From: an uncultured Alphaproteobacteria bacterium
GTDB lineage: Bacteria > Pseudomonadota > Alphaproteobacteria > UBA8366 > JADFVY01
Reading direction: 5' to 3'
Assembly (NCBI GenBank): GCA_947259105.1
Contig: CAMYKU010000003.1
Span: 74,404 to 138,403, forward strand
DNA: 64,000 nucleotides
This document shows, piece after piece, positions 1-50,846 of this stretch (position 1 is the stretch's first letter; every line of letters starts with the position of its first letter). The translations under genes were made by a program, and so were the position numbers. Below the pieces are notes generated by a model that did not search any database, had not been told where the DNA came from, and was given only the letters and a program-made list of their open reading frames with translations.

Positions 1-731
1 CCCGTCAGCGTAAGCATGGCAAAGACGATCCGATAGAACCACTTGTCGCTCAGCATACCGTGGAAGCGCAGGCCCAGCCAAACCCCCACCGGGATGGCCG
101 GGGCCAGCGCCAGCGCGGTGCCGAGATTGCCCGGAGAGAGCTGTCCCAACAGCCCGTAGGGGATCAGCTTGGTGTAGTTCACGACCGCGAAGAACACCGC
201 CATGGTGCCGACATAGACCGATTTGTCGAGGCGCTGCGGCAGCAGATACACCTGCACCGGCGGCGACCCGGCATGGGCGACGGTGCTGGTGAAGCCCGAC
301 AGTCCGGCCCACAGCACACCGCGCGGGCCCGGCTGGCTCGGCGCGCGTTCGGCCTGGCGCAGCACGATCTTGCCGGCAAAGCGCCAGGCCACGAAGGCCA
401 GTGCCACGGTGCCGACGATCAGCCGCACGATATCGTCGCTCAGATAATGGAACGACAACCCGCCGACGGTGATTCCCACCAGCGCGCCCGGCAGCATCAG
501 CGCCATGTTGCGTCGGTGCCACGCGCGGCGATAGGCCCACAGCGCGGCGATGTCCAGGACGCACAGGATCGGCAACAGGATGCCGGCCGCCTGCACCGGC
601 GGAATGACCAGTGTCATCATCGGCACCGACACGATGCCGAGCCCCCCGCCGACCCCCGTCTTGGAGATGCCCGAGATCACCACCGCGGGAATCGCGACGG
701 CGTAGAACAGGGGATCGGTGATGAGGTCCAC
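1..731 (-). CDS. TauE/SafE (DUF81) family anion/sulfite exporter, copy 1. Its 3' end runs off the window start; the probable GTG start is at 731.
   Basis: Minus-strand translation gives MDLITDPLFYAVAIPAVVISGISKTGVGGGLGIV...AHAGSPPVQVYLLPQRLDK, which aligns at roughly 55% identity with the TauE/SafE paralog at 9457-10242. The + strand ORF 60-800 in the track is its antisense shadow. Confidence 0.7.
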   Translation of the reverse strand, partial: MDLITDPLFYAVAIPAVVISGISKTGVGGGLGIVSVPMMTLVIPPVQAAGILLPILCVLDIAALWAYRRAWHRRNMALMLPGALVGITVGGLSFHYLSDDIVRLIVGTVALAFVAWRFAGKIVLRQAERAPSQPGPRGVLWAGLSGFTSTVAHAGSPPVQVYLLPQRLDKSVYVGTMAVFFAVVNYTKLIPYGLLGQLSPGNLGTALALAPAIPVGVWLGLRFHGMLSDKWFYRIVFAMLTLT

Positions 732-821
732 CGGCGGGCGACTCCCTCGAGGCACGGCAAAAAGACAAGGCCGGCGATCCCCGGCCGGCGCCGACCCTAG
801 CACGAAACCGGTGGAAAGGCG

Positions 822-2144
822 CTAGCCCCGAAATCGGTCCGACAGTTCACCCGTGGCGGTGCAGTAGCCGCCGGGGGTGGGGGCACGGCCCTGCCTGAAA
901 AAGTCGGTGAAAGCATATGTCCCCCAACTCTTGCTCTCGGTTGCATGACTGGAGACGAATCTGAGCATCGGTTCGGATTGTCCGCCCACCGGGCATGTCA
1001 TGCGAATGCAGTATTTCAGGTCGGACGCCGCCTGTTCGTCGGGAAGCCACGCAATCGCCCCGTGTTCGAAGAGGTCCGCGACGCCGGCGGCCATGACGAT
1101 GCTGCATCCATGGGAAAGGACCTGGCCGGGTTCTCCGATCAGGGTGGCCAGGCCCGCTTCCGGCGCGTCGGGCGACCATCCGCCGGCCCGGTTCAGCTCC
1201 GCGGCGATCTCCGCTGCGGTCCGGCCTTGCTCGCGCTGCGTGGCGACCCAGCCATCCACAGCTTCCCGCGTTTCCACGCTGGATATAATCGGCCCCGGTA
1301 AAACCGTCAGTACAAATGAGCCGATAAGCACGCCGGCGATCAACATGGCGACCGTCAGCGGCACCAAAATGGCCCTGCCCGGTGTATCCGGCCCCACCCC
1401 ACCAGCCGCGTCGTCAACATAGGCGCGAACCGCAGTGTCCGTCTCCGTCCGGGTGTAGGCCAGACTTCTGCCTATCGTAAACGCAGTCGCGGAGATCACA
1501 AGCGTCAGTGGCAACATCGGATAGGCCACCGCCAGGTCCCAACTGGTCTCTATTCCGTCCACCTCACGCTCCGCGGCCTGCACGAAAATTAGTGTCAGGG
1601 TCAGGCATGAGAAAAGACTTACCACCCCAAGGTGCATGACAGACATGCTGAAGAAACTTCTGCTGAAACGTTTGGTGCCCTGTTCGCGGATACCCTGAAG
1701 AAACTTTGAGGCCGCGCCGCCATTTCTGCGCGCAAGGCGCGGCGCAAACGCGATAAACAATGCGGACGGAACGGTTATCGCAACGGCCCAGCCAGTAAAT
1801 TTCTGCATCGTATCGCCGGACTGGAGCGGCCACCACGCCCATACGACCAACACCACGACGATAAGCGCCAGATTAATCATGCCAAATGAGAAGGCGTAAA
1901 GAAACAGCAGCCATTCGATTTTTGCTGGCTGCTTCGGGCCACTGTCGTAGAGGCTGGCGAGTGACACCGAGCCAGAATAAACCAGCAGGAGAAACCACGC
2001 TAACAACGGCCCTGCAGCTGGCCCGAATAACATGAAGGCGCCCAACGTGACCGCAAGCACAATCAGGATTTCGTAAAGAATTGAGCGGGGCGGCCGCGAC
2101 GACCATTGCGCCAGCGCCCGGTTTTCGATAATTGCGTTGACCAC
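822..2144 (-). CDS. Uncharacterized polytopic membrane protein, paralog P1 (subtype B) of a five-gene tandem family with a conserved Cys-containing C-terminal domain
   Basis: The 440 aa ORF has multiple hydrophobic helices in its N-terminal two thirds. Its C-terminal region is roughly 150 aa with the family motifs WSPDAPEAGLA, GCSIV..AG, YCIRMTCP and a terminal PGGYCTATGELSDRFRG shared with P2-P5. The KQPAKIEWLLFLY block matches P4. Confidence 0.7.
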   Translation of the reverse strand: MVNAIIENRALAQWSSRPPRSILYEILIVLAVTLGAFMLFGPAAGPLLAWFLLLVYSGSVSLASLYDSGPKQPAKIEWLLFLYAFSFGMINLALIVVVLVVWAWWPLQSGDTMQKFTGWAVAITVPSALFIAFAPRLARRNGGAASKFLQGIREQGTKRFSRSFFSMSVMHLGVVSLFSCLTLTLIFVQAAEREVDGIETSWDLAVAYPMLPLTLVISATAFTIGRSLAYTRTETDTAVRAYVDDAAGGVGPDTPGRAILVPLTVAMLIAGVLIGSFVLTVLPGPIISSVETREAVDGWVATQREQGRTAAEIAAELNRAGGWSPDAPEAGLATLIGEPGQVLSHGCSIVMAAGVADLFEHGAIAWLPDEQAASDLKYCIRMTCPVGGQSEPMLRFVSSHATESKSWGTYAFTDFFRQGRAPTPGGYCTATGELSDRFRG

Positions 2145-2248
2145 GGCTTTCCCCTTTCGGAATCAATCGCCATCAGCCTGCCAGCTATCGGCCAGATCTC
2201 CCTCGGTAGTGCGACAGACGCCGCGGCAAATTCTATCTCGAGAGGTAT

Positions 2249-2267
2249 AATCTGACGTTAACGGCCA
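2249..2267 (-). promoter_or_regulatory. Conserved upstream element copy 1 (GGTATAA-N6-GTTAACGG on the + strand), about 105-120 nt upstream of the P1 start
   Basis: Same motif with identical 6-nt spacing at 5253-5271 and 8122-8140, always upstream of the first gene of a paralog pair or singleton. Confidence 0.5.
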
Positions 2268-2277
2268 TCCATACGGG

Positions 2278-3792
2278 TCAGCCCTGGTACGTGTCGGCCA
2301 ACTCACCCTCGGCGGTGCAATAGCCGCCGGGGGACGCCTCGCGCCCCTCCAATAGCAAGTCGGCGTATGCTCTGAAAATCCAGCGCGGGCGTGCGCTGGG
2401 ATGGCTGGAATACAATGCGACGGTGTCCGGCGCATGCCACGCGAGTACGCCGGGGCAGGTCGCCCTGACGCAATAACGAACCGGCGGTATCGGCGTTGCC
2501 TCGTCGTCTTCCTCTTCGGCCTCCTCGGATTCTGATTCCCGGCGGTCGATCTCCTCGGCGAAGCGCCTGGTGGCGTCATGCACCACATGTGTCAACTGAT
2601 CCGATGTTTCGGGCCAGGGCCGGGCTTCCCGTTCGGCCGTATCGATCGTGCCCGCGGTCACCGTCACGGTGCAGTTCCAACGGGCTGTGCCCTCATCCAG
2701 ATCCTCGACCAGATCCGGCAGAAGTCGGGCCAGCCCTTCGCCCGGCGCGTCCGGCGACCAGCGCCCCAGTTCGTTGATCGTCGCGACGATCTCCGCCTCG
2801 GGCCGCCCCGATTGCTGAAAACCGTCCGCCCAGCGAGCCAGTGCCGTCCCGGAATGAGCGCCCGCGGAAAGTGCGAGGACCGGACCCGTCCTCACAACGA
2901 ACATGAAGTGAATGGTCAAGATCAGGGCGGCAAGCGGCGCAGCAAATCCGATGATCGCCACCGCGAGGCGGACAGGCATGCCGACGGCTTTCGTGACGCC
3001 GTGGCCGGGGCCGCCGTCCGGCGGATCATTGGCGGAAAAGCCGCCGTCGCACTGCGCGATGTGCCGCCATGAAACCACGATGCCGGCGGTCGCCAGCAAT
3101 CCCAGTGGCAGGACCGGGTCGGCCAGGAACAGGTCCCACACCGTCGGTATGCGGTCCCACCAAACCATATCGAGAAAATGATAGAACAGGATGGCCGGCC
3201 CGATCACGATAAGCATCAATACCAACGATTCCATAGCGGTAGCCCCGGAAATCCAGAGCGAGAGGACGCGGGACGCGCCGGACCTGTCGTTCAGGCGAGC
3301 GGGTGCGGCGGCGCGCGTCCGTTCGGCCCATGGCCGGATCGCGAAAGCGAGCCCGAGAAGCAGGGCCGCCAGCGCCAGAAGGATCGCCGTCTTCGACAAC
3401 CAGGGCAGATAATCCGCCGGTCCGAACGGAAACGGGGGGCCGTCCGGATCCCCTTCGAAAATTGCGAACACTCGCTCCCAGTCGTATGCGTGGCGGAGCC
3501 AGGTCAGAAGCGCGGCGATGAGAAGCCCCACGACAGCCAACTGGGCGCTGATCGTGCAAAGAGACTGAAGGATGAACTCCCGGAACGCTATTTTGAGCCG
3601 CTTCCATCGATCGCGGTATCCGATCAATGGCCACAGGGAATAGGTCAGATCTACTGCGACAACCGCGCAGAAAGTGATAAGGAAGCCTGCCGGCCAGACG
3701 ACGGCAAAAGCGGCAGCCATCGCCGCGAACAACAGTGCCGTATGCAGCAGCCAGCGCATCGTTTTTCCGTGCCGTTTGTTCGCTGTCCGCAT
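2278..3792 (-). CDS. Uncharacterized polytopic membrane protein, paralog P2 (subtype B). The start is either 3792 or the internal Met at 3759.
   Basis: The 504 aa ORF has the N-terminal block HTALLFAAMAAAF, which matches HTGLLFAAMAAPF of P4. Its C-terminal domain carries WSPDAPGEGLA, NCTVTVTAG, RYCVRATCPG and a terminal SPGGYCTAEGELADTYQG, with an acidic insert EEAEEEDDE. Confidence 0.7.
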   Translation of the reverse strand: MRTANKRHGKTMRWLLHTALLFAAMAAAFAVVWPAGFLITFCAVVAVDLTYSLWPLIGYRDRWKRLKIAFREFILQSLCTISAQLAVVGLLIAALLTWLRHAYDWERVFAIFEGDPDGPPFPFGPADYLPWLSKTAILLALAALLLGLAFAIRPWAERTRAAAPARLNDRSGASRVLSLWISGATAMESLVLMLIVIGPAILFYHFLDMVWWDRIPTVWDLFLADPVLPLGLLATAGIVVSWRHIAQCDGGFSANDPPDGGPGHGVTKAVGMPVRLAVAIIGFAAPLAALILTIHFMFVVRTGPVLALSAGAHSGTALARWADGFQQSGRPEAEIVATINELGRWSPDAPGEGLARLLPDLVEDLDEGTARWNCTVTVTAGTIDTAEREARPWPETSDQLTHVVHDATRRFAEEIDRRESESEEAEEEDDEATPIPPVRYCVRATCPGVLAWHAPDTVALYSSHPSARPRWIFRAYADLLLEGREASPGGYCTAEGELADTYQG

Positions 3793-3797
3793 GCCGG

Positions 3798-5183
3798 CTA
3801 ACCCTGATATTCCGCCGCCAATTCGCCGTCGGTGGTGCAGTAACCGCCGGCTTCGGGCGCGGCGCCGCTGGCGGACATATCCATGAACACGTTGTAGGCC
3901 CAGCCGCGGTTGCGCGACGGGTGGCTGGAGCTGAAGATCACCACCGAATGCGAATGCGCGGCCACCGGGGACGGGCAGGCCAGCCGGATACAGTAGCTTA
4001 TTTCGGGCAGCGGCCGGAAGGCGGCGACATATCCTTCGATCCAGCTCAAGTCCCGCAGCGCCGAATTGTCGGCGGCGCCGGCGTCGACCGTGACCGTGCA
4101 GCCGCTGCCAAGGCCCAGATACTCGAGGTCCTCGCCGAGTTCCGGCAACAGCGCCGGGAGGCCGGCGCCCGGCTGCGGCGTCGTCCAGTTGCCGTGGTCG
4201 CGCAGGTCAGATGCGATCTCGGCGGGGGGCCGGCCCGCCGCCTGCTGCGCTTCGATCCAGTTGTCGGTGGCGCGGGAGATTTCACCCCAGCCGGCGATCA
4301 TCGAGGCCGCGCCGAACGTCCCGATGACCCAGATATGCACGAAATACAGGTACCATCCGTAAGCTGCGGCGGCGCTCCCCAGCACCGCCAGGACCGCCGG
4401 GATTCTTGCCCCGCGGCGCGGCCGGCGCAAGGACGCCAGCGCCGCGGGCTGCATCCGCCGGAACGCCACCGTCAGGACCGCCGCCGCAAGAATGGCCGCT
4501 GCGAAGCCCGGATACTCGTTGGCCAGGTACCCGATATCGACGATCTGCGCCGGGTTGGTCGACCGCAGCAATTCGGGCAGCGCCGTGCCTGTGGCGGCGA
4601 CGCCAAGAAGGCTCACAAGCGCCAGCCCGAGCAATAGCCAGGCCACGGCCGCGGGCCGGAGGAGTCCGGCGCCCTCTGCGCGGACGCGGCGAACGCAGGC
4701 GCCGACGTCTTCGTCGTCGCGCCGCAGCAGGGCGACGGATGCCAGGAACAGGGCGACCGCCCCGACTGCTGCCCCCAACGCAACCGGCGCCATGGCTGCG
4801 AAGGCCAGGGGGAAACCGGGCTCCGCGCCGCCGGCGGCAACGACTTCCCAGCGATAGGCGAGCGGGAACCAGGCGGCGAAACCGAGAATGGCGAAGGCGC
4901 CGACGATGCTGGTGCCGCCGACGAGCTGGGCCAGCATGAACGGCGCCGCCCGCAGTTTCCGCGGCTGTCCGGGGGCTGTCCGCCGAAACGCCGCGACCAG
5001 CGCCCATGTTACATAGGCGGCGGCCACGCCGAGAGGAACAAGGGCGTAATACGGCCGGGAGACCACCGCAGACAGCGGCGCCGCCAGAATCAGGAACAGG
5101 ACCGCGATTTCCAGCAGGGCCAGCACCAGGGACGATTTCGGGCCGGCCGGCCAAACCAGGGACGGTATCGGATCCTTCGCCAT
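3798..5183 (-). CDS. Uncharacterized polytopic membrane protein, paralog P3 (subtype A)
   Basis: The 461 aa ORF has about 8 hydrophobic segments. Its C-terminal domain carries NWTTPQPGAGLPALLPELGED, GCTVTVDAGAADNSALRD, YCIRLACPSPV, SSHPSRNRGW and AGGYCTTDGELAAEYQG. It is the closest paralog of P5 along its full length. Confidence 0.75.
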   Translation of the reverse strand: MAKDPIPSLVWPAGPKSSLVLALLEIAVLFLILAAPLSAVVSRPYYALVPLGVAAAYVTWALVAAFRRTAPGQPRKLRAAPFMLAQLVGGTSIVGAFAILGFAAWFPLAYRWEVVAAGGAEPGFPLAFAAMAPVALGAAVGAVALFLASVALLRRDDEDVGACVRRVRAEGAGLLRPAAVAWLLLGLALVSLLGVAATGTALPELLRSTNPAQIVDIGYLANEYPGFAAAILAAAVLTVAFRRMQPAALASLRRPRRGARIPAVLAVLGSAAAAYGWYLYFVHIWVIGTFGAASMIAGWGEISRATDNWIEAQQAAGRPPAEIASDLRDHGNWTTPQPGAGLPALLPELGEDLEYLGLGSGCTVTVDAGAADNSALRDLSWIEGYVAAFRPLPEISYCIRLACPSPVAAHSHSVVIFSSSHPSRNRGWAYNVFMDMSASGAAPEAGGYCTTDGELAAEYQG

Positions 5184-5252
5184 CGCATCATTACCTTTTG
5201 GCTGTCACAACCGATACGTACAGCAGGAAATGCGGGCTATCCTAACCGGAAA

Positions 5253-5271
5253 GGCATAACCGTGAGTTAAC
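5253..5271 (-). promoter_or_regulatory. Conserved upstream element copy 2 (GGCATAA-N6-GTTAACCG on the + strand), about 70-90 nt upstream of the P3 start
   Basis: Read directly from the P4/P3 intergenic sequence. The 6-nt spacing is conserved. Confidence 0.5.
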
Positions 5272-5286
5272 CGAGCGGCCCTGGCG

Positions 5287-6651
5287 TCAGCCCTGATATT
5301 CCGCCGCCAGTTCGCCGTTCCTCGTGCAATACCCGCCCGGCGCGGCGGCCACGCCTTCGGCGGAGACGTCAGCGTACCAATATTTCCCCCAGCCTTCGGC
5401 CTGGCTGGAACGGTTTGTGAGGAGCAGCAGAGCCGGCGGGGCGCTCCAGGTGAACGGTGGGGCGCATGCCACTGCAATGCAGGCTCTTAATTCCGGTTCG
5501 ATCTCGCCGGCAACAGACGGGCCGTCTCGATCTTGGGTTGGCGGGTCGATGACCCCGGCGGCGATCCGCACCGTGCAGGAATCGGGAAAGGCCTGCCCGG
5601 GGTCCGCGACCAGCGCCCCCAACCCCGCCCCCGGCGCGTCCGGTGTCCAGTGGCCGAACCGGTTCAGCGCCGCAGCCGTTTCCGCATTGGTCCAATCGTC
5701 GTCCTCGTGCGTATTCTCCAGAATCCGCAGCGCTTCGATCACGCCTTTCAGGGCTTTCCTGCCATCCGCCACGCCTTTCGCCGTGATGCTCAGGTGAAAT
5801 GGATAGATGATGAAGAACAGGGCCGCCACGAGGGCGCCGGCCGTCACCGCGGTCAAGACGGAATTGGCTGTCGCGGCCGGTAGCGGCGCGTCCTTCGCGC
5901 CGTCGATGTAGGCCCGAACGACGGCGTCGTCCCCTTCCCGGCTCGTTTCCAGAATCCTGCTCAGCGACAGAATGGCGGCGGCTGCAAGCAGCGAGAACGG
6001 CAAAAACGGATAGGCCGCAATAAGCTCCCAGATTGTCACGATACCGTCGCCGTCACGCCACCACGCCAGTTCGCGCAAATCCGACGGTACCCAGGCTATG
6101 CTGAGCAGGCAGAAGAGTCCCGCGTTGAAAGCCACGTAGCGCAGCCAGTTATCGTGGAACCATCCGAACCCCTTCGCACGGACCCCCTTGAGGAAACGCG
6201 AGGCGGGCCCGCCGCCTTCTCGCGCCAGCAGCGGGGCGAACAGAAGAAACAGGATGGGCGGGAATATCATCGTGGCTGCGATTGCGATCAATGCAGCCAT
6301 GCCGCCGTCCCAAATGTCGCTGGACCTCGTAAGGGGCCGGTATGCCCACAACGGCCATTCCACGATCAAGGCGAACAGCAGCCCCTGCACGGCAATGGGG
6401 ACGGAGATATCGTACAAAATGAACAGCAGACGGACTTTCGCCGGCTGCTTCGGTTTGCCCCGGTCGCGCAGATAGAGGGTCACCAACCACCACAGCACGT
6501 ACATAGAGCCGATGCCGACCGCCGTCAGCGACGCTGTCGCGATCTTCAGCATGAAAAAAGGCGCCGCCATCGCCGCGAACAGCAGACCGGTGTGCACGAC
6601 GCAGCGTCTTGCGAGCACCGAAACGTTCATCTGCCTGCGTTCTTCGCCCAT
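5287..6651 (-). CDS. Uncharacterized polytopic membrane protein, paralog P4 (subtype B). The track ORF is over-extended to 6870; the likely start is the Met at 6651 or 6630.
   Basis: The family-conserved N-terminus begins MNVSVLARRCVVHTGLLFAAMAAPFF. The upstream 73-80 codons are low-complexity (Pro/Ser/Ala-rich) and would overlap the 3' end of P5. The C-terminal domain carries HWTPDAPGAGLGAL, SCTVRIAAG, ACIAVACAPP and APGGYCTRNGELAAEYQG. Confidence 0.7.
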   Translation of the reverse strand: MGEERRQMNVSVLARRCVVHTGLLFAAMAAPFFMLKIATASLTAVGIGSMYVLWWLVTLYLRDRGKPKQPAKVRLLFILYDISVPIAVQGLLFALIVEWPLWAYRPLTRSSDIWDGGMAALIAIAATMIFPPILFLLFAPLLAREGGGPASRFLKGVRAKGFGWFHDNWLRYVAFNAGLFCLLSIAWVPSDLRELAWWRDGDGIVTIWELIAAYPFLPFSLLAAAAILSLSRILETSREGDDAVVRAYIDGAKDAPLPAATANSVLTAVTAGALVAALFFIIYPFHLSITAKGVADGRKALKGVIEALRILENTHEDDDWTNAETAAALNRFGHWTPDAPGAGLGALVADPGQAFPDSCTVRIAAGVIDPPTQDRDGPSVAGEIEPELRACIAVACAPPFTWSAPPALLLLTNRSSQAEGWGKYWYADVSAEGVAAAPGGYCTRNGELAAEYQG

Positions 6652-6664
6652 ATATCGCCGCCCG

Positions 6665-8053
6665 CTAGCCCTGATACGATTCCGCCAGCCCGCCGGTCTC
6701 GGTGCAATAGCCGCCGGGCTCGAAGGCCCGGCCGTTGCCGAATAAGTCCATGGATAAATGGGTGATCCAATACCGGTTGCGCGAGGGGTGGCTGGACTCG
6801 AGGACCACGACGGAGTGCTCGTGCCAGACAACGGGGGAAGGGCAAGCCATCCGGATGCAATAACCAACATCGGTCAGCGGCCGGATATCGGCTTCGAATT
6901 CACGGATCCAGTCCCGATCCCGGAGTGCCGCACTGTCGACGACGCCGGCATCAATCGTAACGGAACAGCCGCTGGCAAGATTCAATTCCCCCAGGTTCTC
7001 GCCTGGCCCAGGCAGGAACGCGGCGAGGCTGGCGTCGGGTTCGGCCGAAGTCCAGTTGCCATGCGCGCGCAGGTCCGCGGCGATCTCATCAGGGCTTCTG
7101 CCTGCTTCACTCTGCGCCGCGACCCAGTCGGTCGTGGCGCCGGATACAACCTTCCATCCCATAATCATGTCCACCGGTCCGAGCGCCGCAATCATGCCAA
7201 TATGCACGACGTACAGGAACCAGCCTAAGGATATGCCGCTACCGCCAAGGGCCGCCAGCACGGCCGGTGCGCGGCTGCCCGCCACGGGGCGCGTCTCGCG
7301 CAGGCACGCCAGCGCCGCGGGCTGGGCCCGCCGGAACGCCACCAGCAGGACCGCCGACGCAAGGATGGCGACTGGTATGGCCGGGAACTCGCCCGCCACG
7401 AACCACCCGCCGACGTCGCGATACGGGTTCGCCTCCTGCAGCAGGAGCGACAGGGCACCTACGCTGGCATTCACGCCGCCAACGCTGGCAATGGCGAAAC
7501 CGAGCAGCAGCGTCGCCGCCGCGGCCGGCAGTAACGACCGCACCCGGTCCGGCCGGAGCGCGCAATCGTCGCCGCTCTCGCCGTCGCGCCGCAGGAAGAA
7601 GGACGAGGCAAGGAGGAATATCGCGACCGAGACGACAATCAGGGCGAAATCGATGGGCGCCAGGAATGAATGACGGGTGGGGTCGGTGTGACCATACTCG
7701 ACGACGTCGTTAACTTTGCGGCGGTATGCGGCCTGTAGCCAGATGCCAAGAACCAACGAGCCGGCGCCACGAGCAGCCAGCCAGGCGCTGGCAAGCTGGG
7801 CCAGCGAAAACAAACCCGCGCGCAGTTTCGATGGCAGTTCACGCGACGGCCGCCAGTACGCGGCGACCAGCGACCAGATTACGTAGGCAGCGATCAGACC
7901 GACAGGCCCAAGGATCAACAGATCGTTGGAAACGCCCATAAAAAACGGCCCTGCCAACACCAGAAAGACGATCACCGTTTCCAGCAGCGCCCAGCCGTAT
8001 GCGGGGGCCGGGGCGGTCACTGTGCCGGGGCTCTGCGAATGATCGGCTGCCAT
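6665..8053 (-). CDS. Uncharacterized polytopic membrane protein, paralog P5 (subtype A)
   Basis: The 462 aa ORF is collinear with P3. It carries NWTSAEPDASLAAFLPGPGE, GCSVTIDAGVVDSAALRD, YCIRMACPSPVVWHEHSVVVLESSHPSRNRYW and EPGGYCTETGGLAESYQG. Confidence 0.75.
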   Translation of the reverse strand: MAADHSQSPGTVTAPAPAYGWALLETVIVFLVLAGPFFMGVSNDLLILGPVGLIAAYVIWSLVAAYWRPSRELPSKLRAGLFSLAQLASAWLAARGAGSLVLGIWLQAAYRRKVNDVVEYGHTDPTRHSFLAPIDFALIVVSVAIFLLASSFFLRRDGESGDDCALRPDRVRSLLPAAAATLLLGFAIASVGGVNASVGALSLLLQEANPYRDVGGWFVAGEFPAIPVAILASAVLLVAFRRAQPAALACLRETRPVAGSRAPAVLAALGGSGISLGWFLYVVHIGMIAALGPVDMIMGWKVVSGATTDWVAAQSEAGRSPDEIAADLRAHGNWTSAEPDASLAAFLPGPGENLGELNLASGCSVTIDAGVVDSAALRDRDWIREFEADIRPLTDVGYCIRMACPSPVVWHEHSVVVLESSHPSRNRYWITHLSMDLFGNGRAFEPGGYCTETGGLAESYQG

Positions 8054-8121
8054 CTCGGTTCGGTCTCCGGGCTGTTGCGCCGAACAATCGCGGCGGAACT
8101 GCGCCCGGTACCCTAGCGATA

Positions 8122-8140
8122 AAGGTATAACTCCCGGTTA
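8122..8140 (-). promoter_or_regulatory. Conserved upstream element copy 3 (GGTATAA-N6-GTTAACCG on the + strand), about 70-90 nt upstream of the P5 start
   Basis: Read directly from the intergenic sequence between the patatin gene and P5. Confidence 0.5.
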
Positions 8141-8262
8141 ACCGGCGGTTGCCGCATGCCCCGTTGCCGCCTCCGCACCTCCGTCACCGCTGCCCGCCGT
8201 CGTACATCCCCTTTGCTTGCTCTCCTGAAAAAGCGCCCGGAAAGGAAAGTTGTGGCGGCGCG

Positions 8263-9189
8263 TCACGGCACGATTTCCCTCAGGGCCGGGAGCATTCGCG
8301 CCACCGACCGTCGTCCCTCGGCAATGGATTCGTCCGCCCGGTCGAATTCCATAAGGCCGATCTCGCTCAGCTTGGGCATCAGCATCACATGGGGTGGTTC
8401 GCCCGCCAGGCGGCTGCGCGTGATCTGGTCCTGCATGATATTGATCGCGCCGGCGATCACGTCGAAATATCCTGGTCCGGCCGAACGCTTTCCAAGCAAC
8501 TGGGCGGCGATTGCGTTCACGCCGTTCCTGATCCCCGCGGGAAGGTCGCCGGACAGCTTGGCCAGGAAATCGGTCTCTGGTTCCGGCGCGGCACTCTCGC
8601 GGATGGCCAGCCGTTTCGGGATACCATGGCGTCCGACGATATCGCCGTTGAGATTCACTGCGATGACGATCTCGGCGCCCAGGGCGCGGCAGGCCGACAC
8701 CGGGATCGGATTCACGACCCCGCCGTCGATCAGGCACCATTCACCCTTGCGCACCGGGCTGAATATCCCCGGCAGGGCGATGGATGCGCGTACGGCTTCG
8801 ACCATGGACCCCTCGCGCAGCCAGATCTCACGCCCCGAAACGAGGTCCGTGGCGACGGCGACGAACGGCTTGGGAAGATTCTCGATGGCCGTATCTTCGT
8901 GGCGTTCGCGAAAGAATTTCATCAGCCGGCGGCCTTCGATCAGGCCGCCACTGGTGAGGCTGACGTCCATGAAGCGCACGATATCCCGCCAGTTGATCGA
9001 GCGCGCCCATTTGTCCAGGATTTCCAGTTCCCCGGCGACGTAGGCCGCTCCGACAAGCGCGCCGATGGAGCTGCCACAAACGATGTCAGGCTCGATGCCG
9101 GCCTCGCCAAGCGCCTGAATCACCCCGATATGCGACCATCCGCGCGCGGACCCGCTGCCAAGCGCCAGCCCGATCCGGGGGCGGCTCAC
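8263..9189 (-). CDS. Patatin-like phospholipase (RssA-like). The track ORF extends to 9324, but the likely start is the GTG or TTG near 9189-9192, about 10 codons before the glycine-rich loop.
   Basis: It has the oxyanion-hole motif GSGSARG and the nucleophile motif GSSIG (GxSxG), plus a downstream DGG(V) Asp motif. Its overall length and order match bacterial patatin/RssA proteins. Confidence 0.8.
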   Translation of the reverse strand: MSRPRIGLALGSGSARGWSHIGVIQALGEAGIEPDIVCGSSIGALVGAAYVAGELEILDKWARSINWRDIVRFMDVSLTSGGLIEGRRLMKFFRERHEDTAIENLPKPFVAVATDLVSGREIWLREGSMVEAVRASIALPGIFSPVRKGEWCLIDGGVVNPIPVSACRALGAEIVIAVNLNGDIVGRHGIPKRLAIRESAAPEPETDFLAKLSGDLPAGIRNGVNAIAAQLLGKRSAGPGYFDVIAGAINIMQDQITRSRLAGEPPHVMLMPKLSEIGLMEFDRADESIAEGRRSVARMLPALREIVP

Positions 9190-9456
9190 CAACGCGGGCT
9201 CCGGAACTGCCGCAGGCCGGGGCCGAGGACCGCCGCACCCTCGGAAAGGCCGACGATACCGGCCTCCGCAACCGCGAGGGCACAAAACGGCGGATCGGCG
9301 AAGCCAGGCAAAGGCAAACCCCATTCAACTCGGAACCGGTAACGGCACGCTATACCACAGCGTGCATCGGCGCGACAGCGGATCGGATCAGGCCCTGCCC
9401 GGCAAGTCGGGCTTGAAAGCCGCGCGCGTCGATGCCGTCGACATCGAGGTCTTCGC

Positions 9457-10242
9457 TCATGGGCCTCCGGCCACGAGCCCCTCGACCCCCTGCCAGACCA
9501 GGCGGCAGCCGGTCAGGAAGATCAGCGTGTAGCAGACCCGGTAGAACAGGTCCTCGGGCAGGCGCTGCTGGAAGGTCACGCCGAGCCAGATGCCGACGGG
9601 CGCGACCGGCGCCAGGATCAGCGCGGTGCCGAGGTTGGTCTCGTCCAGCGTGCCCAGCAGCGTATAGGGCACCACTTTCATCACGTCGACCAGCGCGAAC
9701 AGGATCACCGTGGTGCCGATGAAGACGCGTTTGTCCAGGCGCTGCGGCAGCAGGTAGATATGCACCGGCGGGCTGCCGCCATGGGCGACGACGCTGGTGA
9801 ATCCGCCGACCGCCGCCCAGAAGGTTCCGTACCCGCGGTGCGGCGGCGCCCGATGGTCTGCGGCGCGCTTGAGCAGCCGCAGGCCCACCCAGCGGTACAG
9901 CGTGAACAGGATAGCGATGGCGCCGATGAGGATGCGGATCATGTCGTCGTTCATGTAGCGGAAGGTCAGGCCGCCGACGACCACGCCGATCAGCGAGCCC
10001 GGCAGCAGGATCATCAGGTTGCGCCGGTGGAAGATGCCCCAGTAGGCGCGCAGGCTGAACACGTCCATGAACAGCAGCAGCGGCATCAGCACCGCCGCCG
10101 CCTGGACCGGCGGCACGATCAGCGCCATCAGCGGCACCGCCATGATGCCCAGCCCGCCGCCGACCCCGGCCTTGGAAAACCCGACGATCAGGACGGCGGG
10201 CACCGCCAGCGCGTAGAACCACGGATCGCTGATGAATTCCAA
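9457..10242 (-). CDS. TauE/SafE (DUF81) family anion/sulfite exporter, copy 2
   Basis: It reads MEFISDPWFYALAVPAVLIVGFSKAGVGGGLGIMAVPLMALIVPP...AHGGSPPVHIYLLPQRLDK. This is the DUF81 twin-repeat membrane topology, and it is paralogous to the gene at 1-731. The start is TTG at 10242 or GTG at 10251. Confidence 0.75.
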   Translation of the reverse strand: MEFISDPWFYALAVPAVLIVGFSKAGVGGGLGIMAVPLMALIVPPVQAAAVLMPLLLFMDVFSLRAYWGIFHRRNLMILLPGSLIGVVVGGLTFRYMNDDMIRILIGAIAILFTLYRWVGLRLLKRAADHRAPPHRGYGTFWAAVGGFTSVVAHGGSPPVHIYLLPQRLDKRVFIGTTVILFALVDVMKVVPYTLLGTLDETNLGTALILAPVAPVGIWLGVTFQQRLPEDLFYRVCYTLIFLTGCRLVWQGVEGLVAGGP

Positions 10243-10436
10243 GCACTGCACCCTTCGTTGCGGCGGCCCCAATCAACCTGCCGACGCCAGCCGGCGCGGC
10301 GCCGTCGGCGGAGCCAGGCTGCCGTGATTCTTCATTGCGGGGAAACGATTTAACACGGGCCAAGAGAAAGTGATAGCGGATGCCGCCATATCCTGCGGCG
10401 CACCCCTTGACTCTCATCCAATAACGCGCAATTCAT

Positions 10437-10712
10437 GCCTAGTGGTGTGTATCAGACATATGGCACCCTTGGGACGGTCTTGCGCGTTCATCCGGCGAGG
10501 CGCGGGGCGCGCCGCGATACCGGCGCATCGCAAGCGGCGCGCAACGCGGCCGGTGGGCGCTCAAGGCCGCCCTTTGGGTCACGTTTCCCGCCCCCTCGGT
10601 GCGTCGGGCGCGCTTGACGATGCTCCAGCATCGCCTGCGCGCACCCTCCTGCCGAGGAGGCGGGAAACGCGATCCCATGGGCGCCATATGTCTAGTACAC
10701 ACCACTAGCCCA
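10437..10712. repeat. About 276 bp imperfect palindromic element bounded by 27 bp terminal inverted repeats (CCTAGTGGTGTGTAYYAGACATATGGC). It is MITE-like or a large regulatory hairpin.
   Basis: The segment at 10437-10463 and the reverse complement of 10686-10712 match at 24 of 27 positions. Internal arms are also partly self-complementary, and there is a central GATGCTccAGCATC palindrome at about 10619. The element produces mirror-image pseudo-ORFs on both strands, each ending ...HMSxTHH. Confidence 0.5.
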
Positions 10713-10760
10713 TACCGGAGGGTTGCCGAAACCCGGTGGAATTGTTCCCGAGGCTTGTGC

Positions 10761-11474
10761 ATGCCACTCGCAAACGAAAAAACGACGGCCGGGCGCGACG
10801 ACGGAAGCTTGCGAGTCCTGAACGGCGAGGCGGCAGACCGGCTGGCGGCGATATCGCGGGTCCTCACCGTGCCGGCCGGCCGGCCGGTCATGATGGAGGG
10901 CGCGCCGGCAACGGAACTGTACAGCGTATCCCAGGGCATCGTCAGCGTCTTCAAGCTGATGCCGGACGGCCGGCGGCAGATCACCGGCTTCCTGTATCCC
11001 GGCAGTTTTCTAGGCGTCACGTTCAACGCTGAGACGACCTACGCTTATAGTGCCGACGCCGTAACGGCGGTGACGCTGCGGGCGTATCCGCGCCGCGACT
11101 TCGAGCGGCTGCTCGACGAGGTGCCAGGCGTGCGTCGCGCGTTCATCGCCGCAATGGCTGACGAGTTGACCGAGGCGCAGGACCGCATGCTGCTGCTGGC
11201 CCACAGGTCGGCGAGCGAACGGCTGGCCTGTTTCCTGCTGACCCTGGCCGGCCGCCAGGCCGGCAAGGGGGGGGAGCCGGTCGACACCGTTTACATTCCG
11301 ATGCGCGGCAGCGATATCGCCGATTATCTGGGTCTGACCGCCGAAACGGTGAGCCGCACGCTGGCGGTGTTCCGCCGCAAGGGAATCGTCCATGCGGAAA
11401 GGGGCGGCAGCATCGGAATCCTGGACCGCGGCGCGCTGGAGGCGCTGGCCGGACCACTGTCGCGCCACATCTGA
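10761..11474 (+). CDS. Crp/Fnr family transcriptional regulator
   Basis: It has an N-terminal cNMP-binding beta-roll (VPAGRPVMMEGAPATELYSVSQGIVSV) and a C-terminal HTH (SDIADYLGLTAETVSRTLAVFRRKGIV). It is divergent from the TauE/patatin/paralog cluster. Confidence 0.8.
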   Translation: MPLANEKTTAGRDDGSLRVLNGEAADRLAAISRVLTVPAGRPVMMEGAPATELYSVSQGIVSVFKLMPDGRRQITGFLYPGSFLGVTFNAETTYAYSADAVTAVTLRAYPRRDFERLLDEVPGVRRAFIAAMADELTEAQDRMLLLAHRSASERLACFLLTLAGRQAGKGGEPVDTVYIPMRGSDIADYLGLTAETVSRTLAVFRRKGIVHAERGGSIGILDRGALEALAGPLSRHI

Positions 11475-11645
11475 CCCGGTGCCATCCTGGTGAGAAGCCC
11501 GCTCTAGCCGCGCCGCACTGCATATTCCGATCTCACCCGCCGCCCGGGTCACCGGGATTTGAGCGCTCGTGACGTCCGCCGGGACAGTTCCGTGAACAAT
11601 TCCTGCCACGATCGGAAACAGCACGAACATGAAGGAGCAACTGTC

Positions 11646-12107
11646 ATGCTTGTCCGCCCGTTTCTGGCCACGGCTTTGATCTCCATCGGCCTCTTGTCCC
11701 ATGTCGCCGTTGCGCCGGCGGCCGCCGCGGATCCCGTCTCTACAGGCACGTTCGGCAATCTTGCCGTCAGCGGCTACGACCCGGTCGCCTACTTCGCGCA
11801 AGGCAAGCCGGTCGAGGGACGCAGTGTCCTGGAATACGAATGGAACGACGCCACCTGGCGCTTTTCCAGCGCGGAGAACCTCGCGGCGTTCAAGGCGAGC
11901 CCGGAGGCCTATGCACCGCAGTATGGCGGCTATTGCGCCTGGGCGGTCAGCCAGGGCTACACCGCAAAGAGCGATCCCGATGCCTGGCGCATCGTCGACG
12001 GCAAGCTCTATCTGAACTACAGCAAGGACATCCAGAAGCGCTGGGCGCAGGATATCCCCGGCAATATCGCCAAGGCCGACGCCAACTGGCCCAAGGTTCT
12101 GGAATAG
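11646..12107 (+). CDS. Secreted YHS-like domain protein (GYDPVAYF ... GGYCAW motif family)
   Basis: It has a signal peptide MLVRPFLATALISIGLLSHVAVAPAAAA. The motifs VSGYDPVAYF and YGGYCAWAV are typical of the YHS-domain-like periplasmic protein family. The track ORF start at 11559 is probably over-extended. Confidence 0.55.
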   Translation: MLVRPFLATALISIGLLSHVAVAPAAAADPVSTGTFGNLAVSGYDPVAYFAQGKPVEGRSVLEYEWNDATWRFSSAENLAAFKASPEAYAPQYGGYCAWAVSQGYTAKSDPDAWRIVDGKLYLNYSKDIQKRWAQDIPGNIAKADANWPKVLE

Positions 12108-12160
12108 GGCATTTCAAGATCGGTCGGCTCCGGCCCGCTCCCCCACCCCGGGAGCCAGGG

Positions 12161-12700
12161 TCAGGCTCGTGTAACCGCGCCTTCCGCGTCACGCGTCGCG
12201 CGCCATCCCGTGTCCGCCATGACGACCGATGTCTCGACCTGGCGGTCGGGAATGTCCCAGTAGCGGCGCAGCAGGGCGTGGGTCTCCTCGCGCGGTACAA
12301 GGTGGAACCCGTGCTTTCCGTAAAAACCGATGGCCCAGTTCGCGGCGGCCCAGGTGCCGACCAGCAGCGGGCCGTCGGTGAAGGACCGGATGTGATCCAG
12401 CAGCCGGCCGCCGATGCCGCGGCGGCGCATCGCCGAGCGCACATAGGCGTGGCGGATCAGCACCACGTCCTGTACCGGCTGCAACCCCATCACGCCGAGC
12501 AGACGATTGTCCCCCTCGAATCCCCAGAACTTGACGCCCGCCGCGATTTCAGCCGCCAGCGCGTCGCGCGGCATATAGGGGTCGCGCCAGCGGTCCTCGG
12601 GAATGACGTCCTTATAGGCCTGCGCCGCATCGTTGACGATGGCGAAGATATCCTCTCCTCGAAGTCCCGTTGGTTGCAGTAGCGGATCATGATGGGTCAC
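12161..12700 (-). CDS. GNAT family N-acetyltransferase
   Basis: The acetyl-CoA binding motif region (RRRGIGGRLLDHI) and the protein length are typical of GNAT enzymes. Confidence 0.65.
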   Translation of the reverse strand: MTHHDPLLQPTGLRGEDIFAIVNDAAQAYKDVIPEDRWRDPYMPRDALAAEIAAGVKFWGFEGDNRLLGVMGLQPVQDVVLIRHAYVRSAMRRRGIGGRLLDHIRSFTDGPLLVGTWAAANWAIGFYGKHGFHLVPREETHALLRRYWDIPDRQVETSVVMADTGWRATRDAEGAVTRA

Positions 12701-14271
12701 ACTGTAACATAAATCCCGCCCCGTCTGCTATCGCCCGCGCCGTCGAAGGCGCCGGTCGCGGGGTCCAGGGCGACCGCGTGGACCCCGCCGTAGAACATGC
12801 TGAAATGGTCCCACAGCTCCTTGTCCGGGAACGGGTCGGTGAAGCGGGCGATGCGGTCCGCGTCGAAGCCGCCGTCCGCGCCGACCGCTTCCACGCTCAG
12901 CCGGCCGCGTTCGCAGTGGATGCGCGGGGCCGAGATCGCATCCGGCAGCCCCATCCCGAAGCGCAGCACATTCATCAGCACCTGCAGGATCGCCGTGCGG
13001 ATGCGGTTCGAGCCGCCACTGCCCAGCGCCGTTCGCCGCCCGTCCGCATGGTCCACCATGGTCGGCGCCATCATCGACGAGATGCGGGTATCCGGCGTCC
13101 ATTCATGGAAGCCGCGCGGATTGATGTCCTCCTCGCCCAGCATGTTGTTCGGCGCGATGCCGCAGCCGGGCAGTACGTGGCCGCAACCCTCGCCGTTCGA
13201 CACGCTCATCGCCGCCGCGTTGCCGTCGGCATCGATCACGCTGACATGGGTGGTGCCGCCCTGCTTCAGCGCACGGCCCCGCATCGATTTCCGGTATTCC
13301 GCCACGACCGGGTCGGACAGGAGCGTCGCGACCCGTGCCGCATCGCAGCCCTCGTCGAGCCCGCAGCCGGTGCGCGCCGCGTTGGTCGCCGCCATGGCAT
13401 CGGCCAGCCGCATCAGCCAGGCCGGGTCGTCGGGCGCGCTGCGCTCCTCGAGACCGTCCAGCAGCGCCAGGGCGAAGGCGATCAGCGGGCCGCCGGAGGA
13501 CGGCGGTGGATTGGTGAGGATCCGGGCGCCGCCGAAGCCCCGTTCCAGCGGCCGCCGGCGCACCACCTCGTAACCCTGCAGATCGGACCGCGTCAGGGTG
13601 CCGCCGGACGCGGCGCAAGCCTCGACGAACTCCGATGCGATGGCGCCGCGATAGAACAGGTCGCGTCCCTCGCGCGCCAGCGCCTCCAGCGTCCCGGCCA
13701 TGGCGCCGGGCCGGTAGATTTCGCCCGCGCGCAGCACGCGGCCGGGCGCCGCGGCGCTCTCGAACAGGGCGGTCGCCGATTCGGTCGCCAGGTAGATCGG
13801 CTCCACGATATCCAGGATGTGCGCCTGCAATGCCGAGATTTCGGCGCCTCGGCGGGCAAGCCGGGCGGCGGGTTCGACGATCCGGGCCATCGGCAGCCTG
13901 CCGAGATCCTGATGCACGGCGAACAGTCCGGCCACCACGCCGGGCGTCGCCATCGCACCCATGCCGATATGGAATTCCTGTGTCGTGGTGCCGAAATCGA
14001 CGTCCACCGGGTAAAACTCGACCTCACCGGCCGGGCGCCTGCGCCTGGGAGTCTGGCAGAAGAAGTCGTACAGCACCGGCTCGCCTTCGGCCGGCTCCGC
14101 CAGCAGGAAGCCGCCGCCGGCCAGCGAGGCCAGCACCGGTTCCGCCACCGGCGCGGTGCACAACGCCGCCAGCGCCGCGTCGAAGGCGTTGCCGCCGTCG
14201 CGCAGCATCTCGGCGGCGGCATTTGCGGTCGCCGCGTCGCCCGCGGCTATGGCGCCTCTGGTCCGTGTCAT
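12697..14271 (-). CDS. ggt: Gamma-glutamyltransferase family protein (Ntn hydrolase)
   Basis: It has the catalytic Thr motif GGTTHVSVIDADGN, the conserved SSGG and GSGGS regions, and the N-terminal AIAAGDAATANAAAEMLRDGGNAFDAA. I chose the internal Met at 14271 as the start. Confidence 0.8.
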   Translation of the reverse strand: MTRTRGAIAAGDAATANAAAEMLRDGGNAFDAALAALCTAPVAEPVLASLAGGGFLLAEPAEGEPVLYDFFCQTPRRRRPAGEVEFYPVDVDFGTTTQEFHIGMGAMATPGVVAGLFAVHQDLGRLPMARIVEPAARLARRGAEISALQAHILDIVEPIYLATESATALFESAAAPGRVLRAGEIYRPGAMAGTLEALAREGRDLFYRGAIASEFVEACAASGGTLTRSDLQGYEVVRRRPLERGFGGARILTNPPPSSGGPLIAFALALLDGLEERSAPDDPAWLMRLADAMAATNAARTGCGLDEGCDAARVATLLSDPVVAEYRKSMRGRALKQGGTTHVSVIDADGNAAAMSVSNGEGCGHVLPGCGIAPNNMLGEEDINPRGFHEWTPDTRISSMMAPTMVDHADGRRTALGSGGSNRIRTAILQVLMNVLRFGMGLPDAISAPRIHCERGRLSVEAVGADGGFDADRIARFTDPFPDKELWDHFSMFYGGVHAVALDPATGAFDGAGDSRRGGIYVTV

Positions 14272-14352
14272 CGCGCTTTTCCCGGGCGGCAATCAACCGT
14301 CAGCCGTTAGCCGTTGGCGTAGTGCCAAGTGCCAATAGCCAACCGCCGAATG

Positions 14353-16998: not shown

Positions 16999-17164
16999 GT
17001 GTGCTCCGGGCTCTTCCGGAGTGTGCGCCGATTCCGCGTCTCACACCGCGGCGCGCGGCCATAGGTGCGGTTCTTTCCGACCGCATGTTGATCCTGATCA
17101 AGGCATGGCGACCGGTTTTCCGGCAGACTGCCGTCGCGTAAGGCTTCCACGATTGGAGGATGCC

Positions 17165-50699: not shown

Positions 50700-50846
50700 C
50701 CCGATCTTAAACCTCGCTGCCCCATCATCCCCGAACGAGGATCGGCTGCGCCGCCGCGCGGCGTAGCGGGTTTCCGCGCGTATCGAAGGCCGACCGAGCT
50801 GGTCGAAGAGTGGGCGCGCCATGGTGTTCGGGCTGGAGCCGAAAGA

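Follow-up and report, generated by a model that had tools for sequence, protein, structure and literature searches.

At one end of a 64-kb stretch of DNA from an uncultured Alphaproteobacteria bacterium (contig CAMYKU010000003.1, positions 74,404 to 138,403; hereafter the window, meaning the whole stretch) eight genes follow one another on the minus strand, with a TauE/SafE-family permease gene at either end and between them a patatin-family phospholipase gene and five paralogous genes that we call P1 to P5, and a Crp/Fnr-family regulator gene faces away from the block. This arrangement poses the question of whether the block is one system, as an earlier note on this DNA had proposed, a co-transcribed membrane-lipid or anion-linked unit in which the lipase would lead P1 to P5 and both TauE permeases under the control of the divergent Crp/Fnr regulator. 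On balance, and with little more than even confidence, we read the locus instead as a composite of three layers with different histories, namely a conserved sulfonate/sulfite neighbourhood, a hypervariable cassette of P genes and a very recent patatin insertion accompanied by a miniature inverted-repeat transposable element (MITE). The genes in question are listed here.

3-731, minus strand: TauE1, TauE/SafE-family permease, orthologue of the TauE(b) gene of related loci; its 3' end lies beyond the left edge of the window
822-2144, minus strand: P1, 440 amino acids, the most divergent paralogue (family profile E 1.6e-126)
2278-3792, minus strand: P2, 504 amino acids, with an acidic insert within the periplasmic domain; no promoter motif upstream
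3798-5183, minus strand: P3, 461 amino acids (family profile E 6e-194)
5287-6654, minus strand: P4, ~455 amino acids from the likely start MGEERRQMNV, the mechanically called frame extending to 6870; no promoter motif upstream
6665-8053, minus strand: P5, 462 amino acids, the protein modelled with AF2 (AlphaFold2)
8263-9189, minus strand: RssA-like patatin, on record in a 308-residue form, the open reading frame extending to 9324
9457-10272, minus strand: TauE2, TauE/SafE-family permease, orthologue of the TauE(a) gene of related loci
10761-11474, plus strand: Crp/Fnr-family regulator, 237 amino acids, divergent from the block

Mechanically called open reading frames (ORFs) abound in this window of ~65% G+C, and those on the opposite strand of the block are high-GC artefacts overlapping genes that are supported by Pfam or by the P family profile. 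The eight co-directional genes are all present in the order TauE2, patatin, P5 to P1, TauE1 with the Crp/Fnr gene diverging from them, the gaps inside the block are short (5-267 bp), no genuine gene lies on its opposite strand and there is no tRNA or integrase boundary within the 64 kb, and in each of these respects the earlier description of the architecture was borne out. Beyond the Crp/Fnr gene Pfam matches identify a YHS-domain gene and a gamma-glutamyltranspeptidase (GGT) gene.

The patatin segment and the related loci

Among 5.8 billion proteins two word-indexed searches found 16 and 13 matches to P proteins, and the contigs carrying them provided ~20 related loci whose synteny was compared by means of a tblastn table. 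A single neighbourhood is conserved across a group of metagenome-assembled genomes (MAGs) of uncultured Rhodospirillales or Alphaproteobacteria, in which amidase, metallophosphoesterase, GGT, acetyltransferase, YHS and Crp genes are followed divergently by TauE(a), a varying number of P genes, TauE(b) and TauE(c), with a PALP enzyme (CuyA-like), a GntR gene, a split GD_AH gene (SuyAB-like) and an Ldh_2 gene downstream of TauE(c). The bracketing of P genes by TauE genes next to a divergent Crp/Fnr gene, to which the earlier note had drawn attention, does recur in relatives, within this one syntenic Rhodospirillales-like lineage only, and as the TauE-bracketed loci are all syntenic they represent one ancestral arrangement and not a repeated independent association. 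One of these loci, L014 (CAYFYY010000007.1), comes from a MAG labelled 'uncultured Flavobacteriales bacterium', although its gene content and sequence identity fit the Rhodospirillales-like lineage and it is probably mis-binned or mislabelled.

The patatin gene was found in no other P locus in the tblastn table, ~14 related loci being without it, and in the window it belongs to a segment of its own.

~8160-9456, minus strand: inserted segment of ~1.3 kb, in this genome only, with the RssA-like patatin as its only gene

The closest relative is the locus L018, whose P5 orthologue is 87% identical in amino acids and 94% in nucleotides. In L018 the sequence immediately before P5 encodes the C-terminal end of TauE2, and the TauE2 stop codon is followed by 100 bp and then by P5. 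When aligned by blastn, bases 1-98 of L018 match window positions 9580-9483 and bases 258-1587 match 8010-6681, and ~160 bp of L018 thus correspond to ~1,470 bp of the window. The ancestral spacer between TauE2 and P5, including the P5 promoter motif, is kept downstream of the patatin gene. Since the segment is missing from L018 the insertion is younger than the split from that relative (at a synonymous divergence, dS, of ~0.14). Judged from these alignments the patatin is a predicted RssA-like phospholipase gene that recently entered this genome alone, between TauE2 and the P5 promoter.

The patatin protein matches PF01734 with 102.3 bits against a cutoff of 27.7 and carries the GSSIG serine and DGG aspartate motifs. 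Against the NCBIfam RssA model NF007623 it scores 266.7 bits, below the cutoff of 272, a near miss that extends over the full length (residues 48-351 against model positions 3-296). It therefore resembles RssA-type phospholipases in its patatin domain, its full-length model match and both motifs, and differs from them in falling 5 bits short of the equivalog cutoff and in lying on a genome-specific insertion. Its homologues number more than 7,800 at E below 1e-60, several of them named RssA by NCBI; it is ~50% identical to Azospirillum proteins, and orthologues at 78-85% identity exist (P0117-P0119). It has no effector-type extensions, and a PADLOC search showed no secretion or defence context here. 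In 80 metagenome loci (520 kb) surrounding patatin homologues of 50-62% identity we found no TauE, P, Crp, YHS or GGT gene and no CuyA-like gene nearby.

These observations run counter to the earlier picture of an operon-like lipid or anion system led by the patatin, whose gene sits on a genome-specific insertion missing from all related loci. The same note had regarded P genes found without patatin or TauE as evidence against a functional unit, and in fact none of the related loci with P genes has a patatin, and four of them (L005, L019, L020 and L021) have no TauE either; it had likewise asked whether the patatin might be an rssA gene independent of the array, and the protein is RssA-like, its insertion is missing from L018 and the 80 homologue loci contain neither TauE nor P genes. 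The statement that there is no evidence of recent acquisition is also wrong for the patatin segment and for the MITE described below, both of which are missing from every related locus.

The P genes can be separated from the TauE genes as well. In L005 and L006 three P genes are flanked immediately by GGT and the CuyA-like gene, TauE, Crp and YHS genes all being missing, and L019, L020 and L021 contain distant P singletons in unrelated contexts, with a phage integrase as neighbour in L020 and a Wzy_C gene in L021. The association of P with TauE is not obligatory. The distant member P0102 of L020 (positions 6272-9398, profile E 7e-11) adjoins the phage-type integrase and a run of small unknown genes, a setting which hints that some P members travel on integrative elements.

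Promoters and transcription units of the P genes

The spacers upstream of P5, P3 and P1 share the sequence CCGGTTAAC-N5-GTTAT-N-CCTTT-N5/6-CTAGnnT. Its core, TTAAC-N6-TTAT, has three matches in the window against 0.04 expected, all of them on the minus strand and 73-117 nt upstream of these three genes, and a terminator scan located a hairpin at the other end of the array.

2247-2261, minus strand: promoter-like motif of P1, TTAAC-N6-TTAT followed by the -10-like element GATAGAAT
5256-5270, minus strand: promoter-like motif of P3, a match to the motif
8127-8141, minus strand: promoter-like motif of P5, a match to the motif, from the ancestral TauE2-P5 spacer
770-789, minus strand: GC-rich, terminator-like hairpin with a T run in the P1-TauE1 spacer

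In the relatives the motif, at 9 or more of 11 core positions, precedes the leading P gene of nearly every unit by 72-137 nt, the L019 singleton among them, and at this threshold it was never found upstream of a TauE, CuyA-like or patatin gene. P4 starts 10-31 bp past the end of P5 and P2 starts 5 bp past the end of P3, both without the motif, and the array is for this reason probably made up of three units, P5-P4, P3-P2 and P1. The spacer between the last P gene and TauE(b) is ~80% conserved across seven loci whichever P subfamily ends the array. The P promoters, the hairpin before TauE1 and the absence of an FNR/FixK-type box from the locus together indicate that the block is not one operon and that the lipase is not its leader.

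A single lipase-led system under the Crp/Fnr regulator is in our view very improbable. It would account for the co-directional genes with their short gaps and for the recurrence of the TauE-P-TauE bracket with its divergent Crp gene in relatives, but no related locus has the patatin, whose insertion the closest relative does not share, loci of patatin homologues are without TauE and P genes, promoters that serve the P units separately lie downstream of the insertion with a hairpin between P1 and TauE1, the locus contains no FNR/FixK box, and in L005 and L019-L021 the P genes occur without TauE, Crp and YHS.

As to the regulator of the P units, 13 P promoters carry TTAA-N7-TTA[T/G/A] upstream of a -10-like element. 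In such promoters the -35 region would be replaced by the direct repeat GTTAAC-N5-GTTAK (TTAA-N7-TTA[T/G/A]), a putative site for a response regulator of the OmpR/CtrA type. GTTA half-sites repeated at 11 bp in place of the -35 region are typical of promoters that depend on OmpR/PhoB/CtrA-type response regulators. The CtrA consensus TTAA-N7-TTAA sits at the -35 of CtrA-activated promoters (PMC11264516) and the P motif is one base away from it. As in CtrA-activated promoters the putative P half-sites show an 11-bp periodicity at -35 and lie ~10-11 nt upstream of the -10-like CTAGnnT, whereas the second half-site is mostly TTAT or TTAG and the conserved flanks (CCGG..., ...CCTTT) fall outside the consensus. 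It is a reasonable hypothesis that the P units depend on CtrA, the best candidate regulator of this predicted site.

Two further occurrences of such boxes were seen. The only perfect CtrA-type box in the window (TTAACCCGATCTTAA) lies at 50696-50710 on the plus strand, ~140 nt upstream of a methyl-accepting chemotaxis protein (MCP) gene at 50847-52529, and has the same spacing from box to -10 element as the P promoters. In L007 two copies of the motif (9748-9762 and 9913-9927) precede the single P gene, and the first of these overlaps the end of TauE(a), resembles the P1 promoter of the window and may be the remnant of a lost P unit.

The P cassette and its conserved flanks

The claim that the P genes form an undescribed family stands. 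P1-P5 have no match in Pfam, NCBIfam, PADLOC, PHROGs or the other curated libraries, ten distant members have no match in Pfam, PDB sequence profiles compared with the alignments of the P C-terminal domain and of the full-length proteins gave nothing below E 0.03, and a tblastn search with P5 found no match in plasmid and phage collections. The family is also rare. A 29-sequence profile run with HMMER retrieved 89 P clusters at E 1e-3 or lower among 1.84 billion cluster representatives, the full-length ones all of 430-530 amino acids, and a pattern scan located the family in only 4 of ~185,000 species genomes. At the sequence level P is an undescribed and well-delimited family of unknown function; it is not a demonstrated new system.

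The family profile finds exactly five copies in the window, and these are true paralogues with profile E values of 1e-126 to 1e-194 and a common C-terminus (invariant ...GGYCT..G.L....G), although only 25-48% identical to one another (25-33% for the others against P1, 48% for P3 against P5). Copy number varies widely among the loci, with one P gene in L001, L007-10, L015 and L016, two in L011-13, at least two in L018 and L022, three in L002-4 and L005-6 and five in the window. A recent tandem amplification of the five copies was considered and discarded, as P2-P5 are each closer to an orthologue elsewhere than to their paralogues in the window. The orthologue of P2 in L003 (L003_c) is 73% identical, those of P3 lie at 77-82% (P0019 and L011_b, with P0019 at 82%), that of P4 at 60% (P0036) and that of P5 at 87% (L018_a); P1 is an orphan whose best match in another genome is 38% identical. 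Because P2-P5 are closer to their outside orthologues the array must evolve by birth and death of old subfamilies. One feature that distinguishes a subfamily is an insert of ~35 residues, strongly acidic (..ESESEEAEEEDDEATP..), in the periplasmic domain of P2 (~2497-2610) and of its L003 orthologue (12898-14418), which the other subfamilies do not have.

Between the same flanks the rates differ markedly. The flanking TauE, GGT and Crp genes are 75-95% identical to those of the window and the P genes between them 43-60%. The ratio of nonsynonymous to synonymous substitution rates (dN/dS), calculated by the Nei-Gojobori method on orthologous pairs, is 0.35-0.64 for P pairs, TauE1, TauE2, GGT and Crp having 0.07-0.27 when the same genomes are compared, and the P genes evolve 3-6 times faster than their flanks. 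Disrupted copies are found as well: in L002-4, three independent assemblies, both TauE(a) and the middle P gene are split (9182-9903 and 11395-12892), and in sister metagenomes the second P gene is intact in L011, frameshifted in L012 and lacking 21 amino acids in L013. The TauE(c) gene of L011 is disrupted too (13772-14453). With its one to five copies, old subfamilies and pseudogenes the P array is a hypervariable cassette set within conserved flanks.

Such turnover could also mean that the array is largely decaying paralogue DNA, nearly neutral under relaxed selection and with no important current role, which we regard as improbable. The dN/dS values of up to 0.64, the split and frameshifted copies in several assemblies, the reduction to a single copy in some genomes and the absence of a close orthologue of P1 would all fit such decay. 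However dN/dS is below 1 in every pair, 84 members that are 25-40% identical share ~25 positions conserved at 85% or more and an unvarying C-terminus, the promoter motifs are conserved, the AF2 models are confident and every genome of the lineage that we examined keeps at least one intact P copy.

The flanking permease genes have a more ordinary explanation. TauE1 and TauE2 had been described as roughly 55% identical paralogues; the paralogy holds and the figure does not, the measured identity being 52% (127/245, E 6e-94). They are old paralogues, each with orthologues at 80-95% identity across the lineage, as TauE2 is the orthologue of TauE(a) (85-94%) and TauE1 that of TauE(b) (80-95%), and TauE(c) is a distant third type, ~25% identical to both. 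TauE2 matches PF01925 with 126.1 bits (cutoff 32.6) and orthologues of TauE1 carry the same domain. Among the enzymes encoded beside them in the relatives, the CuyA-like lyase has as the best of 8 related models NF052482 (D-cysteate sulfo-lyase) with 360.5 bits, below the cutoff of 450, the best NCBIfam match of the Ldh_2 gene is L-sulfolactate dehydrogenase with 206 bits, below the cutoff of 500, and the GD_AH genes form a small-plus-large pair of the SuyAB type. CuyA neighbourhoods are known to hold the putative sulfite exporter CuyZ, and cysteate can also be degraded via sulfolactate dehydrogenase and SuyAB (PMC11193023). Given these neighbours, the several TauE genes would ordinarily be explained as the exporters of a desulfonation neighbourhood. 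It is plausible from these sub-threshold matches that the TauE genes are exporters attached to an organosulfonate-desulfonation neighbourhood, and most likely the permeases would export sulfite produced by the adjacent desulfonation enzymes, independently of P.

In family terms TauE2 is like the TauE/SafE/CuyZ-type (DUF81, TSUP) exporters in its PF01925 match and TauE1 as its 52% paralogue, while unlike in those exporters TauE(a) is a pseudogene or missing in some relatives here. The likeness to cuyA-cuyZ and suyAB clusters lies in the position of TauE(b) and TauE(c) next to a CuyA-like lyase, a split SuyAB-like GD_AH gene and Ldh_2 in the relatives; the differences are that there are three TauE genes here with the unrelated P array between two of them, and that the CuyA and sulfolactate-dehydrogenase matches are below their equivalog cutoffs.

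This context also raises the possibility that P is an accessory to sulfonate or sulfite metabolism, either a periplasmic module for sensing or handling or an uptake component working with the TauE permeases. The P arrays do lie between TauE(a) and TauE(b), near TauE(c) and a CuyA-like gene, in at least nine related genomes or populations, the array of L005 still abuts the CuyA-like gene, and the periplasmic domain contains four conserved cysteines whose conserved disulfides could react with sulfite. Nevertheless we think such a role unlikely, for all of these loci descend from one arrangement and amount to a single evolutionary event, the genes next to P in L019, L020 and L021 are unrelated ones, three P genes have outlasted the loss of every TauE gene in L005, P has separate promoters with a terminator-like hairpin before TauE(b), and one to five copies, pseudogenes and a dN/dS of 0.35-0.64 are atypical of metabolic accessories beside constrained TauE and GGT genes.

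On the other side of TauE2 the spacer to the Crp/Fnr gene and the genes beyond it contain the following features.

10405-10438, minus strand: candidate site for a regulator, the conserved motif GCATGAATTGCGCGTTAT... ahead of TauE2/TauE(a)
10439-10708, no strand assigned: MITE-like element of 270 bp with 36-nt terminal inverted repeats (CTAGTGGTGTGTA..ATATGGC) in the Crp-TauE2 spacer
11559-12107, plus strand: YHS-domain (seleno)protein gene in the Cys form (GGYCAW), with a signal peptide (NF041384, 173 bits against a cutoff of 70)

The Crp/Fnr protein matches the cNMP-binding family PF00027 (58.8 bits) and the Crp-type helix-turn-helix (HTH) families PF13545 (64 bits) and PF00325 (37.1 bits), all above their cutoffs, and its best NCBIfam matches are FixK and FnrL, both below cutoff (FixK 125 against 300). 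It is 72-89% identical in relatives, where the YHS (seleno)protein gene is always paired with it. Its start is at 10761, giving 237 amino acids as in all relatives, and the ORF from 10599 reads into the MITE-like insertion and is 54 codons too long. The MITE-like element is missing from five related loci and present as a single copy in the window, in which its terminal repeat occurs twice against 0 expected. An FNR/FixK box (TTGAT-N4-ATCAA) was sought in positions 1-12000 of the window and none was found, and such a box was dropped as a tie between the Crp gene and the block. The sole perfect FNR/FixK-type palindrome of the window, TTGATCCTGATCAA, is at 17088-17101, where 0.94 are expected by chance. 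The Crp-TauE(a) spacer has instead a motif, GCATGAATT[G/A]CGCGT[T/A]AT, that is conserved in the window, L003, L007, L011, L015 and L022 and is a perfect palindrome (ATTACGCGTAAT) in L003 and L015. Unlike FNR/FixK boxes in sequence, the motif is a possible operator for the divergent regulator of the Crp family.

Architecture and possible roles of the P proteins

Family-averaged hydropathy shows seven hydrophobic segments with loops rich in lysine and arginine at positions 60-85, 150-180 and 238-268, and by the position of these loops the N-terminus is predicted to be cytoplasmic and the stretch from residue ~293 to residue 462 periplasmic. Nearly all of the ~25 positions that are at least 85% conserved lie after position 318, in the periplasmic domain, and they include G318, G332, W334, C363, C399, C404, S420-S421-H422, W429 and D436 together with G447-G448, C450, T451, G454, L456, Q461 and the terminal G462 at the C-terminal end. 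The four near-invariant cysteines suggest two disulfides. Within P5 the dN/dS is 0.64 for the membrane part and 0.33 for the C-terminal domain. The C-terminus (GGYCT) resembles the YHS motif (GGYCAW); homology between the two was examined by hhalign and set aside as coincidence (probability 2.9%, 12 columns aligned).

The AF2 model of full-length P5 is reasonably confident (predicted local distance difference test, pLDDT, 79.6; predicted template modelling score, pTM, 0.76) and that of the isolated C-terminal domain has a pLDDT of 85.4 and a pTM of 0.84. In the P5 model one unbroken helix (263-316) forms the seventh membrane segment and extends into the periplasm. A Foldseek comparison of the full-length model with PDB gave a best E of 0.08, and the C-terminal domain shows a weak similarity to the type IV pilin fold with modest scores. 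As in type IV pilins and pseudopilins of the type II secretion system (T2SS), among them PilX, PilE, PilA and GspK/I/H, a long helix would lie half in the inner membrane and half against an antiparallel beta-sheet and the globular part has conserved cysteines. Unlike in these proteins the helix is not N-terminal but is the seventh transmembrane segment of a polytopic protein of 440-500 amino acids, and P has no prepilin leader, no sequence similarity to them and no adjacent pilus assembly genes. A regular-expression search for the prepilin motif (G|F/M-T-L-I/L-E) found it in 0 of 84 family members, and no pilus or T2SS assembly genes occur in the ~20 loci examined. Because no member has the motif, the helix is internal and the fold scores are modest, P is not a pilin, and the models make its domain pilin-like in fold at most.

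The overall architecture of P is like that of envelope enzymes such as EptA, LtaS and PglB, in which a multi-helix N-terminal membrane anchor is joined to a globular C-terminal periplasmic domain. P differs from them in that there is no sequence or fold match and in that its periplasmic domain is small (~170 amino acids) and not like a sulfatase or an oligosaccharyltransferase (OST).

According to the models seven poorly conserved helices would anchor P in the inner membrane, its N-terminus lying in the cytoplasm, and the last helix would run on into the periplasm bearing the conserved functional part, an acidic domain of ~170 amino acids with similarity to the pilin fold. This domain would present four cysteines, probably in two disulfides, an SSH motif, an Asp and the fixed ...GGYCT..G.LA..YQG C-terminus. 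Such a build points to a periplasm-facing binding or recognition module that is possibly weakly catalytic (possibly with an S-H-D site) and appears to be neither a transporter nor a partner of the lipase.

Another conceivable role is one in conflict, in which the P proteins would be entry receptors, decoys or immunity factors against phages or against contact-dependent or bacteriocin toxins and would have diversified in an arms race. The hypervariable cassette within highly conserved flanks, its changes in copy number and pseudogenes at the population level, the raised dN/dS, the one distant member beside a phage integrase and the rare, lineage-restricted occurrence of the family would be expected of such determinants. 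Yet there is no PADLOC match for P1-P5, the patatin or TauE2 and no PHROG match for P, no toxin, secretion or phage genes lie nearby, the plasmid and phage collections hold no homologues, and it is the exposed periplasmic domain that varies least (dN/dS 0.33, the membrane part having 0.64), the opposite of what receptor escape predicts. Conflict is consequently an unlikely explanation to our mind. A broader and equally doubtful proposal is that P is a new class of inner-membrane recognition proteins facing the periplasm, with a 7-transmembrane anchor and a disulfide-locked, pilin-like head, turned over by rapid birth and death at a fixed cassette site in the chromosome, under CtrA-like cell-cycle or developmental control, and serving in recognition at the envelope or polar surface or as entry or immunity determinants in phage or interbacterial conflict.

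The composite reading of the locus, with P as a recognition module under a response regulator of the CtrA type, has a number of points against it. The last base of the second half-site departs from the CtrA consensus in most copies, and another response regulator is equally possible for the predicted site. The dN/dS values come from the simple Nei-Gojobori method applied to high-GC genes. None of the matches to CuyA, sulfolactate dehydrogenase, RssA and FixK reaches its curated NCBIfam cutoff, and what lies to the left of the window on its contig (TauE(c) and CuyA) is predicted from synteny. The pairing of the disulfides and the clustering of the SSH and Asp residues are putative. Lastly P has stayed together with TauE(a) and TauE(b) throughout the lineage, and a functional link would be consistent with this.

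Seen in a single genome this tidy co-directional block was mistaken for an operon-like system, and it took a dozen related loci to show the three histories within it; guilt by association with the lipase would have sent experiments the wrong way. Fast turnover in a lineage-specific array of envelope proteins is in itself a familiar phenomenon, and the TauE permeases, the RssA-like patatin and the Crp/Fnr regulator are ordinary. If the P proteins were indeed a class of recognition proteins as outlined they would constitute a kind of system not yet described, and if a role is found for them P would add a new periplasm-facing membrane module in the Alphaproteobacteria and possibly a new class of CtrA-type target.

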